Assembly (NCBI GenBank): GCA_041666205.1
Contig: JBAYHI010000005.1
Location: 20,386-84,385 of the forward strand
DNA from: Patescibacteria group bacterium
GTDB taxonomy: Bacteria > Patescibacteriota > Patescibacteriia > UBA9934
Direction of reading: 5' to 3'
DNA length: 64,000 bases
The position numbers and the translations under genes are program-made. The notes beneath the pieces are model-generated. The model made no database searches. It was not told the DNA's origin and was given only the letters and a program-made list of their open reading frames with translations. Below, one piece after another: positions 1,647 through 54,843 of this stretch (positions are counted from its first letter, which is position 1; every line of letters starts with the position of its first letter).

Positions 1647-3548
1647 TTACGATATATCTTCCTCCCACGTCCCATTCGCATCAATACGACTTCTGAAAAA
1701 CTTTTCTGTTTCTTTATTCACAAAGTACACATAACAACCTTTCATCCCCCGCGTCAATAAGATTCGATAGGTGTTTTTCAACAGCTCGACAAATTGATCT
1801 TTTGATCTCCGAACAACCGTATCAAATGAATGTTCTGGTCGTGCAATCCAATTTTGCTTCTCAAAATCGTAAACCAAATCTTCACCGATAATGACACCAA
1901 CATAATCAAACTCAAATCCCTGAGCCGTATACACGCAACCAATTTGATTTACGCCTTGCGGATCGTGTGCCCATAATGATGCTTTTGGAATTCCGGCCAC
2001 CAATCTTCTTGAATCTGTCTTTGCATTCCACGGACGTTGATAATCTCCGATAACGACATCGTCGACTAACGCGCCCTCATTCGTCGCACTAGACCAAGGC
2101 CAGCAAAACCCTGCTGTCAAACGTGCCGTGTTTCCATGTTCAGCTTTTTCTTTTATGGCTTGTTCCAGAGCCTCCGGCGTGTCGAAAATTTTAAATTCAA
2201 AACCGTCATTTTGGTCCCAAATAGGATTTGCCGTACGTTTGATTCCCAACGTGTTATTGACCCAATTGATAAAGGCGTCCGAGCCATTGCATCGAAATTG
2301 CGCCTCAAGTTCATACTCTAAAACCTCACGGCCTTTTTCTTTTGCGTATTCACGAATGTAGGAAACCGACCCGATCTCATTTGGTCGCACGATTTGATTG
2401 TCGTCGATGAAAAATACGGCAAGTTTCGATGCATCTAATAATTCTTCAATTTGGAGTTTGTTTGAGGTTTTATCTTTCCGTGTAAATCGATTATTGCTCG
2501 TTTTTCGTATTCGATGTGCTTCATCACAAATTAGCACATCAATGTCGCCGGGACCGGCCGAAGCATAACTATTGAAATATTTGAATTGTACCGAGCCACG
2601 CGTTCCAATAATTTTTCTTAGTGTCTCGGTAAATGCTTTTGACCCCGTGGCGTAATGTGCATTTTTCCCCTCAGCTAATAGATCTGCCATTAAATTTAGT
2701 GCAATAACAGATTTCCCCGTGCCAGGACCACCGCGAACAATTAATATTTTACGTCCGTCGCTCGTATCAAGTCCTCGACGTGCTAACGCCATCACCTTAT
2801 CAAAAACGATACGCTGTTCATCGAGCAAAACATATTCTGATTTTCCTTTGATAACTGAAGAGATGTGATCGAGTAATTTCCGACTTGGTTTATATTTCCC
2901 ATTATCAATTTTACTCATGACCGATTCCCCGTTTCCGCGCTCCAAACCCTGCAATAAATATGCACAAAGTTCATCTACTTTTTCTGCTGTAAAAACTGGG
3001 TATTTATCGACGAGGTTGGAGAATTTTGGTGAGAACAACTCATCATTGCTCACCGGATTATAGTTGTGCAAATAACTACACGCTTCCAGACGTACCGGCT
3101 GTGGTCCTTCATAAAAAGTCGTGTGCGTATCTGCAAGATATTCTTTGTACCCGCCAACTTGCGCTGAAGGATGAAGAACCTCGCGCTTCGCACCACCTAC
3201 CCACGTTAAGACTTCATTTTCTCCGTCGGCTTGTTCGGTTTTCTCCCACTGCTTGAGCTCGATGATCATTGCCGTATCTTGAGCGTTTGTATCGACTCCG
3301 CAGATAATGCAATCAAGACGTTTTGACGTTAAAGGCAATTGATATTCCAAAAGGATACCGTGATCAATAAGATCTGCATGCTGAAAAACTTGAGACAATG
3401 CGCGCAACGAATTTCTCCAAGATGTAACCTCAGCTGGCGAAGGATAATAACGAAAATGTGAAAAAAATGCATCGCGAAGAAGATCAGCAATGCGATTTTG
3501 AATATTATCGAGGATAAATTCTTTCGAGGTACCTGAATAGAGTCGCAT
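1647..3548 (-). CDS. DUF2075-type protein: N-terminal PD-(D/E)xK nuclease-like domain fused to SF1 helicase-like P-loop ATPase (Schlafen/Nhi-like architecture)
   Basis: N-terminus has D...ELK nuclease motif (RLDCIICGVD...IIELKQW). Walker A GGPGTGKS, Walker B/DEAH box LICDEAHRI. C-terminal LLTRGMKGCYVYF motif typical of the DUF2075/UvrD_C_2-like tail. 633 aa. Confidence 0.7.
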   Translation of the reverse strand: MRLYSGTSKEFILDNIQNRIADLLRDAFFSHFRYYPSPAEVTSWRNSLRALSQVFQHADLIDHGILLEYQLPLTSKRLDCIICGVDTNAQDTAMIIELKQWEKTEQADGENEVLTWVGGAKREVLHPSAQVGGYKEYLADTHTTFYEGPQPVRLEACSYLHNYNPVSNDELFSPKFSNLVDKYPVFTAEKVDELCAYLLQGLERGNGESVMSKIDNGKYKPSRKLLDHISSVIKGKSEYVLLDEQRIVFDKVMALARRGLDTSDGRKILIVRGGPGTGKSVIALNLMADLLAEGKNAHYATGSKAFTETLRKIIGTRGSVQFKYFNSYASAGPGDIDVLICDEAHRIRKTSNNRFTRKDKTSNKLQIEELLDASKLAVFFIDDNQIVRPNEIGSVSYIREYAKEKGREVLEYELEAQFRCNGSDAFINWVNNTLGIKRTANPIWDQNDGFEFKIFDTPEALEQAIKEKAEHGNTARLTAGFCWPWSSATNEGALVDDVVIGDYQRPWNAKTDSRRLVAGIPKASLWAHDPQGVNQIGCVYTAQGFEFDYVGVIIGEDLVYDFEKQNWIARPEHSFDTVVRRSKDQFVELLKNTYRILLTRGMKGCYVYFVNKETEKFFRSRIDANGTWEEDIS

Positions 3549-3550
3549 AA

Positions 3551-3898
3551 CTAGAGTTTATTGTATTTCGTGTGTTTCCCTTTTGCTTTTTCGATCGGGT
3601 ATTTTTCTTCGTTTTTTTTCAATTTTTTCTCTACCGCTTTCAGAAGATCAATTTTCAAATCATGGCTCATTAATAAAACCCAATACAAAACATCCGCGAG
3701 CTCATCTGCGATATGTTCTTTATCGCTTTTCACATAATCCTCAATTTCTTTTGGATTTTTCCATTGGAAATGTTCCATCACTTCTCCCGCCTCCAAAACC
3801 AAAGAAATCGACAAATCTTTTGGGTTATGAAATTGCCTCCAGTCTCTTGCATCTCGAAATGCAATGATCTTTTTTGTGATCTTTTTTATGTCATCCAT
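3551..3898 (-). CDS. MazG-like nucleotide pyrophosphohydrolase (small all-alpha NTP-PPase)
   Basis: 115 aa; EAGEVMEHFQW (E-x-x-E metal site) and ELADVLYWVLLMSHDL motifs typical of MazG/HisE-superfamily NTP pyrophosphatases. Stop is 2 nt from the DUF2075 start. Confidence 0.7.
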   Translation of the reverse strand: MDDIKKITKKIIAFRDARDWRQFHNPKDLSISLVLEAGEVMEHFQWKNPKEIEDYVKSDKEHIADELADVLYWVLLMSHDLKIDLLKAVEKKLKKNEEKYPIEKAKGKHTKYNKL

Positions 3899-4186: not shown

Positions 4187-4753
4187 TTATTCCACAAACA
4201 ATTCATCTTCTTCCCATTTTCGTGGGTTCTCCATAATATAGGTGCGGATATTGCTGAGGGATTTCTCATCACGAACAATGTGTTCATAATAATTCCGTTG
4301 CCAAACCGCGCCACCGGTATTCCCTCGAATAACATTCGCGCGTTTTGTGACCGCGGATTTGAATCCGGCAACAAACGATCCAATCGATTGCGATTTGGGA
4401 CCAGATCGATGTCCTGTAGGGGCGACCGGCCGGTCGCCCCTACGAAAACAAATATCGTCCGTACGAAAAACATCATTTCCACGGTTGATAACCGTAATCA
4501 CATGGATATGATTTGGCATAATCACCAAAGAATCCAATTCGATTTCGGATCGAATTTCGAGGGTCTTCAATAATTCATCATGAACAATATTCCCAAATTG
4601 ATTTAGACGAATAATTCCATGTTCAATTGCACCAAACAAACATTCACGATCCTTTGTGCAAATCGTGAGAAAATATGCGCCATCCTCAGAATAATCGTAT
4701 CCTTGCAGACGAATGGAACGACGGTGCAATCGTGGAAATTTATTAATCGGCAT
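4187..4753 (-). CDS. IS200/IS605-like Y1 (HUH) transposase, REP-associated tyrosine transposase (RAYT)-like
   Basis: HUH motif in VIMPNHIHVITV; C-terminal AVWQRNYYEHIVRDEKSLSNIRTYIMENPRKW with catalytic-Tyr context typical of this family; 188 aa. A REP-like GTAG palindrome is embedded in-frame (see repeat 4416-4443). Confidence 0.7.
   Translation of the reverse strand: MPINKFPRLHRRSIRLQGYDYSEDGAYFLTICTKDRECLFGAIEHGIIRLNQFGNIVHDELLKTLEIRSEIELDSLVIMPNHIHVITVINRGNDVFRTDDICFRRGDRPVAPTGHRSGPKSQSIGSFVAGFKSAVTKRANVIRGNTGGAVWQRNYYEHIVRDEKSLSNIRTYIMENPRKWEEDELFVE
4416..4443. repeat. REP-like palindrome gtaggggcgaccggccggtcgcccctac (GTAG-ended) lying inside the RAYT coding sequence
   Basis: Perfect 28-bp inverted repeat; same GTAGGGGC...GCCCCTAC design as hairpins at 5649, 5699, 5983 and 53537. 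Confidence 0.6.
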
Positions 4754-4772
4754 TTGGCAAAGGATCTATTCC

Positions 4773-5126
4773 TTACTCGTAAATCGGCGGGGACCAAGCC
4801 AACCAGATTATAAGATCTGTAATCAATAGCAATCCAACCAACGCCAGATCCCAAAATCCCACCCATTTTTTCTCTGCAATCTCTGGAAAGAATTTTCCAA
4901 AATAGATGTAGTACAAAATCCGTCGAATGAGTTGCGCGCCAAGAAGGACGCCAACGATTCTTGGAATAGCCGTGAGTGGATAATATCCCCAAAAAATAAA
5001 TCCAACGTCACGCCACGTGAATAAAAGAATAAAAACCGTGGGAACCAAAATGCACACAAAGTAAAGCACGCGCAAAAGGCGATACCATACGATTTCTTTT
5101 GCACGTAAAAGTGTTTTTGTTTGCAT
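4773..5126 (-). CDS. hypothetical small membrane protein (3 predicted TM segments)
   Basis: Hydrophobic stretches ILVPTVFILLF / VGVLLGAQLI / LALVGLLLITDLIIWLAW; no identifiable motif; chosen over overlapping alternative frames. Confidence 0.4.
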   Translation of the reverse strand: MQTKTLLRAKEIVWYRLLRVLYFVCILVPTVFILLFTWRDVGFIFWGYYPLTAIPRIVGVLLGAQLIRRILYYIYFGKFFPEIAEKKWVGFWDLALVGLLLITDLIIWLAWSPPIYE

Positions 5127-5142
5127 ACTCCTCCATGAAAAA

Positions 5143-5589
5143 TTATTTCTTCAGCAATTCCTCAATCATCTTTTTCACGCGTCCCCCATCGACCTGCCCG
5201 CGTAGCTGTTCCATTGATGCTTTCATGGCTTTGCCCATATCAGCCAAATCGCTCACACCAAGTTCGGCAAGAAGTGCTTCAATTTTTGTTTTTAATTCTT
5301 CATCACTCATTTCCGGTGGCAAGTAGGCCTTAAGAATCGCAATTTCTTTTTGCGTTTGCGCAATCAAATCTTCACGCGCAGCTTTTGTGAAATCCCCGAG
5401 TGCATCTTCGAGTTTTTTCAAATCGCTCTTAATGACCGTCATTGCATCGGCGTCTTCGAGTTCTTTTTTGACCTCAATGGCTTTATTTTTGAGAGACGAG
5501 AACGTAACACGCAAGATATTTAAGGTCTCCATGTCGTGGTTACGCATGGCGTTTTTGATGTCTTCTTGGATTTGTTGATAGAGATTCAT
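5143..5589 (-). CDS. GatB/YqeY domain protein
   Basis: MNLYQQIQEDIKNAMRNHDMETLNILRVTFSSLKNKAIE...EMSDEELKTKIEALLAELGV matches the YqeY/GatB C-terminal domain. Start placed at MNLYQQ. Confidence 0.7.
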   Translation of the reverse strand: MNLYQQIQEDIKNAMRNHDMETLNILRVTFSSLKNKAIEVKKELEDADAMTVIKSDLKKLEDALGDFTKAAREDLIAQTQKEIAILKAYLPPEMSDEELKTKIEALLAELGVSDLADMGKAMKASMEQLRGQVDGGRVKKMIEELLKK

Positions 5590-5648
5590 ATGAAGACAGA
5601 TTAGCATGGATTTTGGGATAAATCCATGGATTCTGTCTTATAGAATTT

Positions 5649-5668
5649 ACAGGGGCCTGTCAGCCCCT
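5649..5668. repeat. REP-like hairpin acaggggcctgtcagcccct
   Basis: Inverted repeat aggggc/gcccct; member of the GGGGC...GCCCC hairpin family. Confidence 0.5.
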
Positions 5669-5698
5669 TTTCTTGTTATCTCCACTTTCTTTGGATTC

Positions 5699-5717
5699 GT
5701 AGGGGCATCCTGCCCCT
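5699..5717. repeat. REP-like hairpin GTAGGGGCATCCTGCCCCT (5' GTAG)
   Basis: Inverted repeat with GTAG tetranucleotide as in canonical REP/RAYT substrates. Confidence 0.5.
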
Positions 5718-5727
5718 TGAACCCTGG

Positions 5728-5973
5728 CCCCTCTTTTCTTTGCTGGACCCAAAGAAAAGAGGGGGGAAAAGAAAGGGTCTGTTTTCTTGTAGCCCATCCC
5801 AGCCTTCGCGCTTGGCTGGCCCGGAAAAACGTATGAAGAACCAAACCACCCAGGGCAGGAACGTTTTTCCGGTCGGGCAGTGTTCTGATTGCACCGCCGC
5901 CTCGAGGTTGGTAAAGAGGAATCCGGCAAGTTTCTTTCTCTCCACTTTCTTTGCCGGAACAAAGAAAGTGGAG
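5728..5973. repeat. composite repeat element copy 1: hairpin cccctcttttctttg...caaagaaaagagggg, 87-bp core (5792-5878) identical to 53622-53708, shared aaagaggaatccggc box, terminal hairpin ctccactttctttgccggaacaaagaaagtggag
   Basis: Direct comparison with 53562-53975: core 87/87 identical; flanking hairpins conserved in design; copy 2 carries an extra ~170-bp insert. Confidence 0.65.
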
Positions 5974-5982
5974 AAAATAGGT

Positions 5983-6002
5983 TAGGGGCTGGAAGCCCCT
6001 AC
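5983..6002. repeat. REP-like hairpin taggggctggaagcccctac (GTAG on minus strand)
   Basis: Inverted repeat aggggc/gcccct ending in ...ctac. Confidence 0.5.
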
Positions 6003-53009: not shown

Positions 53010-53477
53010 CTAGATTCCTTCTCCGATATGGAATCGATCTGTGAGTTTCTCGTAGGCGTAGATTTCATTTTCCTTGAAAAATCGTGCGATTTCTACAGTG
53101 GCGGATTCAGCCGAATCAGATGCATGGACCATATTTGAAGGCACATTCATCGAAAGATCAGCGCGAATCGTGCCAGCATCAGCCTCGCGAGGATTTGTAG
53201 CGCCAACGATTTTACGAACTTCCGAGATAACGTCCAGGCCCTCAAGTACCATCGCAACCACAGGCGTTTGCATCATATAGCGCTTCAAATCGCCAAAAAA
53301 TGGCTTTGCGCTAAGGTGGCCGTAGTGCTCATTGAGCGTTGCTTCGTCCAAAAGCATGAACTTCATGCCAACGGTCTTTAATCCTTTTCGCTCAAAGCGG
53401 GAAATAATCTCGCCGACAAGCTCCCGTTGCAAAGCATCGGGTTTCAAAAGGACGAGGGTACGCTGTATTTCTGCCAT
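53010..53477 (-). CDS. ndk: nucleoside diphosphate kinase
   Basis: MAEIQRTLVLLKPDALQRELVGEIISRFERKGLK...NMVHASDSAESA (active-site His). Confidence 0.9.
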   Translation of the reverse strand: MAEIQRTLVLLKPDALQRELVGEIISRFERKGLKTVGMKFMLLDEATLNEHYGHLSAKPFFGDLKRYMMQTPVVAMVLEGLDVISEVRKIVGATNPREADAGTIRADLSMNVPSNMVHASDSAESATVEIARFFKENEIYAYEKLTDRFHIGEGI

Positions 53478-53536
53478 AAAATTTTATTATTGGCTGGAAT
53501 ACTAGCAGATTTTATTTGGTTCGTCAAAAATTGTTT

Positions 53537-53556
53537 ACAGGGCTTTCAGCCCCTGT
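53537..53556. repeat. REP-like hairpin acagggctttcagcccctgt
   Basis: Same GGGGC...GCCCC design as the 5649/5699/5983 hairpins. Confidence 0.45.
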
Positions 53557-53561
53557 GTTGT

Positions 53562-53975
53562 CCTCCACTTTTCTTTGCTGGCCCAAAGAAAAGTGGAGAG
53601 AAAAGAAATGGCCTGCTTACGGCCCATCCCAGCCTTCGCGCTTGGCTGGCCCGGAAAAACGTATGAAGAACCAAACCACCCAGGGCAGGAACGTTTTTCC
53701 GGTCGGGCCTTGTTCGATAGCCTGTTTTTATTTGAATCGCCGGCTCGAGCATTGTCAAAGAGGAATCCGGCGTTCGGACAGGAATTGCACGGCCACCTCC
53801 GGCACATCCAAAGTTGTACGGGCATGGCGCGCCATGCCCGTACGCGGGATCCATTGCCGGAGACTGGCCGTGCCCTGGCCGACGACGGATAAGACAACAT
53901 GCCTCTTTGACAAGCGCAGACCCGGCAGCCAGTTTCTTTCCCTCCACTTTCTTTGCTGGTCCAAAGAAAGTGGAG
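53562..53975. repeat. composite repeat element copy 2 (hairpin - 87-bp core 53622-53708 - aaagaggaatccggc - ~170-bp insert incl. 28-bp perfect palindrome 53816-53843 - hairpin ctccactttctttgctggtccaaagaaagtggag)
   Basis: 87/87 identity of core with 5792-5878; terminal hairpins conserved; insert unique to this copy. Confidence 0.65.
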
Positions 53976-53985
53976 ATAACAGGAA

Positions 53986-54843
53986 TCAAAACTCAAAACT
54001 CGCTACCTCGATTTTCTTCCCGTCTGACAAAAGCCGAATATCTCCCAACTGATCGGTACGCAAAATCTCTGCGCCAACCGACTGCAGACGGTCCACAATC
54101 GTCGGGCTTGGATGCCCGTAGTCATTCTCCCCAACCGAAATAACTGCGTACTCGGGTTTCACCATTTCCAAAAACGTGCTCGACGATGAACTAAGACTCC
54201 CATGATGCCCGACTTTGAGCACATCAACGTCAACGAGACCTGATGTCATTTGCGCTTCTTCTTCAATCCCCGCGTCGCCTGTAAAAAGAACCTCGACATC
54301 TCCGTCTTTCAGCAACAGCACAAGCGAACTGTCATTTTCGTCGTCCACATTTTCTACAAAATCCAACAATGGCCACAAAATACAAAGCGATCGATTCTCA
54401 CCCAACTCCAAACAATCTGGTGCGGACGCAATTTCATCATTCGTTTTCCCCATAAACTCTTTTCCAAGTTCCGTGCTGTACGTCGCATTCGGTCGCCAAA
54501 CTTCCCCAAACGAATACCGATCTGCCACCGCATTTAGTCCAACCAAATGATCGGCATGATCGTGTGAGGAAATCATATACTCAATATTGCGATCCCAAAA
54601 CGGCATCACAGCGGAAAGTTTCTCAATCACCTGCTGACTGGGCCCGCCGTCGATCAGAATTTGTGTAGATCCACTTTGAATGAGCGCAGAGTCTCCCTGC
54701 CCCACATCGAAAAACCACACGGCTAATTTTTCATCGCTAAAAATCGTCGGCGACGCAATCGATTGCACCGCCACGGTCACCAAACAAAACGCAACAAGAC
54801 CTACAAATGAGAAAAAAGCTTTTTTCGTTTTACGATAAGCCAT
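53986..54843 (-). CDS. ComEC/Rec2-type metallo-beta-lactamase domain protein (C-terminal module of ComEC encoded separately)
   Basis: MBL motifs ISSHDHADH, GDAG, HHGS; start set at MAYRKTKKAFF (TM anchor); overlaps upstream ComEC membrane ORF by 43 nt in another frame. Confidence 0.65.
   Translation of the reverse strand: MAYRKTKKAFFSFVGLVAFCLVTVAVQSIASPTIFSDEKLAVWFFDVGQGDSALIQSGSTQILIDGGPSQQVIEKLSAVMPFWDRNIEYMISSHDHADHLVGLNAVADRYSFGEVWRPNATYSTELGKEFMGKTNDEIASAPDCLELGENRSLCILWPLLDFVENVDDENDSSLVLLLKDGDVEVLFTGDAGIEEEAQMTSGLVDVDVLKVGHHGSLSSSSSTFLEMVKPEYAVISVGENDYGHPSPTIVDRLQSVGAEILRTDQLGDIRLLSDGKKIEVASFEF

Follow-up and report, generated by a model that had tools for sequence, protein, structure and literature searches.

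An in-frame double-foot REP palindrome, probably inherited, within a RAYT gene of subclass 2.4 type from a Patescibacteria genome

Described REP transposases and REPs within genes

The TnpA_Y1 proteins were classified by Quentin, Siguier, Chandler and Fichant (2018, BMC Genomics 19:475; PMC6006769), whose subclass 2.4 corresponds to group 4 of Bertels et al. (2017). According to the accessible sections of that classification, the members of subclass 2.4 are characterized by the HuH signature NH[IFV]H, a WQ pair, the tyrosine context YIxNNP, a median length of 194 aa, an 8-aa insertion at the end of alphaB and a further insertion, of a length that varies, between beta3 and alphaC, and their distribution is patchy over many phyla. 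Their REPs are described there as 'long' or 'double foot' (5' GT[AG]G ... [quoted passage not shown] These insertions were modelled as a peripheral extension, probably of little effect on activity, and were considered probably neutral; as for the symmetry of the palindromes, the same sections suggest an inverted REP dimer with its centre deleted as the source.

The E. coli TnpA_REP (subclass 2.2, PDB 4ER8) is a monomer that reads the GTAG foot as single-stranded DNA and needs a bulged hairpin, a perfect one not being bound (Messing et al. 2012, PMC3479197); the roles of its GTAG-contact residues are also given in the accessible part of PMC6006769. REPs located in other genes have been reported together with the Rickettsia palindromic elements by Di Nocera et al. 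(2013, PMC3733652), in the available text of which they are thought to be tolerated in flexible loops. In term searches of the accessible text of Bertels et al. (2017) and of Di Nocera et al. (2013), no RAYT gene with an internal REP came up; the text of Bertels et al. is without the words 'inside' and 'internal', and where it once has 'within the RAYT', the family is meant and not the gene. The literature search for REP-encoded peptides (VGATGRSPL, GDRPVAPT and others) found no paper. The origin and maintenance of REPs, as well as the role of domesticated RAYTs, are still unsettled, and a transposase carrying its own recognition hairpin within its ORF would be a compact test system for enzyme-substrate co-evolution.

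The RAYT gene presented here lies in a 64-kb stretch of DNA (hereafter the window) that belongs to a 288-kb contig of a Patescibacteria MAG. It is very likely a member of subclass 2.4, in which case its internal REP would be the published hallmark of the subclass. The protein has in common with the accessible description of subclass 2.4 the NHIH motif, W151-Q152, the Y---NP context, a similar length (188 aa) and a double-foot REP in frame between HuH and Y, and its linker is likewise variable in length among homologues, as is the beta3-alphaC insertion. Contrary to the published consensus YIxNNP, it reads YIMENP, with E for the first N. The locus also differs from the subclass as presented in those sections in that the window has neither flanking REPs nor another long copy, and its host belongs to a group that the accessible taxonomic summary for subclass 2.4 does not name. 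It thus adds a case from a REP-poor Patescibacteria setting, where 64 kb of sequence contain no long REP besides the internal one. Beyond the accessible content of PMC6006769, the present analysis provides the frequencies of internal and flanking REPs, the usage of reading frames, the covariation of the stems and the existence of identical 28-mers at saturated synonymous divergence.

The RAYT gene and its internal palindrome

The features of the gene are collected in Table 1. Its identification as a RAYT (TnpA_REP) in the earlier note was borne out by the motifs, by the homologues and by a profile search of the 188-aa protein, in which Y1_Tnp (Pfam PF01797, IS200-like transposase) scored 27.1 bits, above its gathering score of 23. 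The NCBIfam equivalog REP_Tyr_transpos (NF047646) reached 65.9 bits, below its curated cut-off of 80, and matched in two stretches, because the REP-bearing linker splits the profile match; such splitting is of practical importance, as it brings the score of this RAYT under the cut-off. PADLOC gave no match for the RAYT. The closest non-identical homologues in a protein search (~8000 matches) are 50-64% identical and come from many phyla, and one protein, from a Patescibacteria MAG (P0001), is identical. Two independent assemblies, from ENA and JGI, contain the gene together with this 28-mer, and since their DNA is identical the palindrome is not an assembly artefact. No further RAYT copy is present in the 64-kb window, where the gene is thus single-copy.

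Table 1 Features of the RAYT gene and nearby short hairpins in the window (positions counted from its first nucleotide)
Feature	Position	Strand	Basis or description
tnpA_REP (RAYT) gene, apparently intact, 188 aa, subclass 2.4-like	4187..4753	-	ORF, Pfam Y1_Tnp match and homologues
Catalytic tyrosine motif Y172-I-M-E-N176-P177 (class 2 context Y---NP)	4223..4240	-	aligns with Y115...N119 of E. coli TnpA_REP
W151-Q152...E157-H158..R161	4271..4303	-	aligned to 4ER8: GTAG-contact W94, Q95, E100, H101, R104 of E. coli TnpA_REP
Variable linker, ~residues 95-117, from HuH strand to next helix, predicted disordered	4401..4471	-	AlphaFold2 and homologue lengths
Perfect 28-bp 'double-foot' REP palindrome GTAGGGGCGACCGGCCGGTCGCCCCTAC, GTAG-N20-CTAC; encodes residues 104-113 (RRGDRPVAPT)	4416..4443	.
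HuH motif N81-H82-I83-H84 (signature NH[IFV]H)	4502..4513	-	read from sequence; aligns with HUH strand of 4ER8
Short hairpin with 5' GTAGGGGC foot (GTAGGGGCATCCTGCCCCTTG)	5699..5719	+	7-bp stem, 3-nt loop, single foot
Short hairpin with 5' GTAGGGGC foot (GTAGGGGCTTCCAGCCCCTA)	5983..6002	-	8-bp stem, 3-nt loop, foot on one side

In an alignment of 30 homologues (A1), H82, H84, W151, Q152, H158, R161, Y172, N176 and P177 are invariant. Since these include the catalytic residues and residues aligned with the GTAG contacts, the gene looks intact and potentially active. The C-terminal YYEH named in the earlier note is not the tyrosine motif: by alignment with 4ER8, the catalytic Tyr is Y172 in YIMENP, and the segment WQRNYYEHIVR aligns with the GTAG-contact stretch. 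The window protein thus resembles the E. coli TnpA_REP in its HUH motif, its single catalytic Tyr and its aligned GTAG-contact W, Q, E, H and R, but the overall sequence similarity is weak (E 0.0037) and the spacing from HuH to W differs, with 66 aa between H84 and W151 in the window protein against ~28 aa in E. coli (~38 aa shorter). The Y1 HUH fold and the presumed recognition of a hairpin on single-stranded DNA are also shared with the TnpA of IS200/IS605, whose subterminal hairpins, however, flank the gene at the ends of a multicopy element, whereas here the gene is single-copy and without IS ends and the hairpin lies inside the ORF.

The structure predicted by AlphaFold2 with alignment A1 has a mean pLDDT of 80 and a pTM of 0.75, with a confident core. 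Residues 95-115 have pLDDT values <50 and form a loop between the strand that carries H82 and H84 (residues 82-89) and the helix of residues 124-143. The REP-encoded residues are located inside this low-pLDDT loop, between H84 and Y172. All the internal length variation among homologues is found in the linker from HuH to helix, and the other length differences correspond to N- or C-terminal extensions.

The palindrome was correctly reported in the earlier note as a perfect 28-bp GTAG-type palindrome placed in frame in a variable linker. Its sequence has one exact match in the window against 0.00 expected from 100 dinucleotide-preserving shuffles, which rules out a chance origin, and the translation of the region reads ...FRRGDRPVAPTGHRSG... 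in frame. Either strand folds to a hairpin with a 12-bp stem and a 4-nt loop, and the folding of its 68-nt context gave -16.9 kcal/mol for DNA (z -3.65) and -37.8 kcal/mol for RNA (z -5.8). The GC content is 79% in the palindrome and 40.6% in the remainder of the RAYT gene. The 64-kb window of the 288-kb contig contains no second copy of it at up to 3 mismatches and no other GTAGGG...CCCTAC pair. Similarly, the search for REPs flanking the RAYT (+/-1000 nt, the REPtron criterion) found none of the long type anywhere in the 64 kb beyond the ORF.

The RAYT is located 19 nt downstream of a small membrane-protein ORF and closes the co-directional order hisS, rpsU, yqeY, membrane-protein ORF, RAYT; it is followed by a gap of 288 nt and then by genes for a MazG-like protein and a Schlafen-type helicase. 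A low GC content marks the left 6 kb of the window, which resemble a variable region.

The palindrome at homologous loci and its persistence

As protein searches favour matches that share words with the query, homologous loci were collected with a query alignment from which the linker had been excised (A2). In this way, unbiased by the linker, 80 loci were fetched from contigs of one genome per species, with hosts that include Chloroflexota, Cyanobacteria, Nitrospirota, Desulfobacterota, Bacteroidota and Planctomycetota. A strict GT[AG]G...C[TC]AC palindrome is present in the linker of 44 out of 75 loci (36 of 28 nt and 8 of 29 nt, the latter with an unpaired centre base); 38 of these 44 are perfect and 30 distinct sequences are represented. 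When degenerate copies are included, a REP-like palindrome occupies the linker in 50 of the 62 loci for which both flanks were available, so the internal REP, which had been thought unusual, is widespread among homologues besides being a published hallmark in the accessible text of PMC6006769. A flanking REP-like palindrome, within ~330 nt of the gene ends, was found in 19 of the same 62 loci; 34 loci have the internal one only and 3 the flanking one only, although the count for the 3' flank is probably too low, as 3' REPs are read into extended ORFs. The core of the flanking REP equals the internal core in 9 of the 16 loci that have both. Around one fifth of the homologues have an intact ORF in which the internal palindrome is decayed or absent, which argues that the internal hairpin is not indispensable to the gene. 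The 28-mer of the window also occurs elsewhere in identical form, in the linker of another RAYT in a different frame (locus L063) and outside the RAYT gene (locus L004), and other double-foot types are extragenic in some loci too (for example, L052).

The linker palindromes are nearly invariant in their outer 8 bp (GTAGGGGC/GCCCCTAC). Further in, 6 bp per arm vary by lineage and are always complementary, as in GCGTAT/ATACGC, GCGGTT/AACCGC and GCAATT/AATTGC. Among 23 distinct 28-mers, 98.8% of the cells are paired, changes on both sides occur in 9 of the 14 pairs and there is a single G-U pair. The observed percentage of pairing, the double-changed pairs and cells and the covariation score were matched by none of 500 shuffles (0/500), and further pair types were no more numerous than in the shuffles (344/500). 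These 28-mers had been pre-selected as palindromes (<=2 mismatches), so that the share of loci with a palindrome is the unbiased statistic; the pairs were counted in 28-mers only, a mixed alignment of 28- and 29-mers being left out as its gap fell off-centre. Judged on the sequences, the diversity of the stems shows compensation. The two central pairs are complementary in 20 and 23 of the 23 distinct 28-mers, so the palindromes run through their centre. The formation of a hairpin loop needs no complementary centre. This complementarity fits either the central deletion of an inverted REP dimer suggested in the accessible part of PMC6006769 or a need for identical hairpins on both strands.

In the reading frames of the palindromes, the G of GTAG falls on codon position 1 in 29 loci (VGA... 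peptides), on position 2 in 15 (RG...) and never on position 3, where a TAG stop would arise. A single 28-mer yields RGDRPVAPT in some homologues and VGATGRSPL in others, at the same protein position. Loci with identical 28-mers have a third-codon-position identity of only 0.28-0.53 in conserved blocks, which corresponds to saturation. Among the homologues of A1, RGDRPVAPT is almost invariant in the linker and often repeated, with a linker copy number that goes from 1 to ~8 (P0016), and other frames of the same 28-mer (VGATGRSPL, GRPAGRP) are found in N- and C-terminal extensions, which suggests that the same REP flanks those genes. REPs at gene ends thus appear to have been read into the terminal extensions of some predicted homologues. 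The use of two frames and the compensatory changes in the stems indicate that the DNA is conserved and not the peptide. Taken as nucleotide sequences, the homologous loci suggest that the internal REP is their best-kept REP.

The gene is therefore very probably to be read as an intact TnpA_REP of subclass 2.4 and its 28-bp palindrome as an inherited intragenic double-foot REP rather than a local accident. The palindrome is most likely the recognition hairpin of the enzyme itself. In single-stranded DNA, both strands would form one and the same hairpin, rich in GC and with GTAG as its 5' foot; a structure of this kind would be recognized by the HUH nuclease that the gene itself encodes. Given the conserved residues that align with the GTAG contacts and the GTAG-footed hairpin, the gene would carry its own cognate site, in an arrangement like that of a REPtron but with the REP inside the gene; binding and cleavage of the hairpin by the window protein are predictions here, and the 64-kb window contains a single copy of the palindrome. 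The likeness to E. coli has its limits, since the REPs of that species are imperfect, bulged, extragenic and single-footed and its gene has no internal REP. As the E. coli enzyme rejects a perfect hairpin, recognition of a bulge-free REP in subclass 2.4 must differ. The intragenic cases in the available text of Di Nocera et al. (PMC3733652) share with this one a GTAG-tagged palindrome in frame within a coding region, but they concern unrelated host genes and mostly non-homologous sites, whereas in the present case the REP lies in the gene of its own transposase, at a position that the subclass conserves.

Three reasons may explain why such a REP persists. First, the loop in which it lies would be permissive. 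Second, a deletion of exactly these 28 or 29 nt would put the gene out of frame and inactivate it: as neither length is a multiple of 3, selection at the protein level would guard the REP against deletion. Third, since this guard leaves point mutation free where the loop is disordered, the predominance of perfect palindromes would need selection on the hairpin at the nucleotide level or its renewal from other copies by the RAYT. The encoded peptide would not need a role of its own.

Alternatively, the palindrome could be required in cis, for regulation or otherwise: as an mRNA hairpin that limits translation or the lifetime of the transcript, as a site at which the RAYT binds or nicks its own gene (autoregulation) or as a protected master copy that seeds the genomic REPs; a self-targeting site and a regulatory hairpin had likewise been considered in the earlier note. 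This is doubtful. In its favour, internal REPs are retained much more frequently than flanking ones, most strict copies remain perfect despite the saturated synonymous divergence, the RNA hairpin is very stable, and the window copy survives without another one in 64 kb, so that homogenisation is no obvious cause. Nevertheless, the homologues with an intact ORF and a decayed or missing palindrome amount to ~20%, and the repeated copies in some linkers resemble REP clustering more than a tuned regulator. For an RNA hairpin in particular, the near absence of G-U pairs and the complementary centre would place the constraint on DNA. The insertions were, moreover, considered probably neutral in the accessible sections of PMC6006769. 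A stricter version, in which the internal REP is a required cis element of subclass 2.4 RAYTs rather than a self-perpetuating passenger (a built-in cognate hairpin for autoregulation or a protected master copy renewing the genomic REPs), seems unlikely. If true, it would explain why the internal REP outlasts the flanking ones and stays a perfect palindrome, and also how it can last without any other copy in a Patescibacteria genome of small size.

The symmetry of the palindrome could also mean that it is read as double-stranded DNA by a symmetric (dimeric) protein, as an operator or a restriction-type site, and not as a hairpin. The palindromes do have zero loop, with central pairs that a hairpin would not require. 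Yet, the 29-mers among the strict copies have an unpaired centre base, conservation lies in the GTAG foot, a single-stranded DNA target in E. coli, and the characterized relative is monomeric (PMC3479197); the same symmetry would result from a central deletion in an inverted dimer, as proposed in the accessible part of PMC6006769. Recognition as a duplex is therefore improbable.

The earlier note had envisaged a mobile REP inserted recently, and in frame, in the genome of the window. The tandem linker copies of some homologues indicate that insertion beside existing REPs occurs in the family, and the GC-poor left 6 kb look variable. Still, across phyla most homologues have a REP in the corresponding position, a length of 28 nt is not divisible by 3 and no donor exists in the 64 kb even with 3 mismatches, all of which makes a recent insertion very improbable. 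The conservation of the peptide RGDRPVAPT, with the palindrome as a by-product of coding constraint, is refuted by the two reading frames and the compensatory changes in the stems: a GDRPVAPT-like peptide is present in 102 of the 120 best protein matches, but that list is biased to 5-residue words shared with the query, other lineages have different peptides with different and yet perfect palindromes, the loop is predicted to be disordered, and homologues with the same peptide on non-palindromic DNA, proposed in the earlier note as the sign of such a constraint, give way to the opposite pattern of palindromic DNA kept while the peptide changes.

Other hairpins and repeats in the window

The same hairpin design had been said to recur at 5649, 5699, 5983 and 53537, a claim that does not hold for the palindrome as a whole, given the lack of copies with <=3 mismatches and of GTAGGG...CCCTAC pairs reported above. 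A part of it stands for 5699 and 5983, which share the GTAGGGGC foot on one side. The sites 5649 and 53537 both start with ACAGGG(G)C and are homologous parts of one intergenic repeat unrelated to the REP. In the neighbourhood of the second site, a perfect 28-bp palindrome that the earlier note had missed (GTACGGGCATGGCGCGCCATGCCCGTAC) occupies positions 53816-53843, near which tblastn detected neither a RAYT copy nor a pseudogene. In a search against Rfam, only tRNAs reached the gathering threshold in the window and nothing credible was found in the repeat element at 53450-54050.

The window has an excess of the octamer GTAGGGGC, with 4 occurrences against 0.46 expected, all of them in 4416-6002; this is a weak local signal and not a family of like hairpins. 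The two short hairpins with this foot, ~0.95 and ~1.25 kb upstream of the RAYT, are the sole flank candidates. The one at 5699 is a possible candidate for a short or degenerate REP. That at 5983-6002 is inverted relative to it and adjoins the terminator-like hairpin of rpsU.

Short hairpins and a repeated intergenic element

The two short hairpins that carry a GTAGGGGC foot are mutually inverted, spaced by ~285 nt, and enclose the first copy of an intergenic element, a layout that is REPIN-like. The RAYT gene lies 0.95-1.25 kb downstream of this pair, and the four occurrences of the octamer GTAGGGGC in the window all fall within 4416-6002. The two copies of the element share a near-identical core of ~100 nt (for example, 5798-5831 = 53628-53661), and CTCCACTTTCTTTG-N5/6-CAAAGAAAGTGGAG hairpins, ~33-37 nt long, stand on both sides of each copy. 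A strong structure is predicted for the element on both strands (z ~ -4.4) and an Rfam search with it returned no match. Possible identities are a MITE and a previously undescribed RNA.

Features of the window other than the RAYT gene
Feature	Position	Strand	Details
Schlafen group 3-type helicase	1647-3898	-	633 aa; PF09848, E 2e-91
MazG-like pyrophosphatase	after the helicase		115 aa
Short hairpin, GTAGGGGC foot	5699-5719	+	
Intergenic element, copy 1	5725-5980		~250 nt
Short hairpin, GTAGGGGC foot	5983-6002	-	
Intergenic element, copy 2	53560-53980		~250 nt
Second perfect 28-bp palindrome	53816-53843		GTACGGGCATGGCGCGCCATGCCCGTAC

A second 28-bp palindrome

The second palindrome belongs to a 158-nt insertion (~53772-53930), which one copy of the intergenic repeat has and the other lacks. 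Its architecture is like that of the REP located inside the RAYT ORF, but the feet differ, being GTAC...GTAC in this case. A tblastn search of the window found no RAYT remnant near it. Palindromes resembling it (GTACGGGC...GCCCGTAC) flank a subclass 2.4 RAYT at one of the homologous loci, L019.

The left end of the window

The helicase, for which PADLOC reports weaker matches to PDC-S41, AbiO and Nhi, and the MazG-like gene are both found in the left end of the window, where the GC content is 35-42% versus 47.7% overall. Beside the RAYT there may thus be an island of defence or variable genes.

REP copies in RAYT homologues

Two further patterns are seen among the RAYT homologues, in proteins P0016, P0117, P0041 and P0046 and in loci such as L035 and L045. 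REP-encoded peptides occur in N- or C-terminal extensions of some predicted homologues, which suggests that flanking REPs have been read into these predicted ORFs. Several REP copies are also found in tandem within the linker, the variable loop following the HuH strand, of some homologues, and the P0016 linker contains ~8 PVAPT units.
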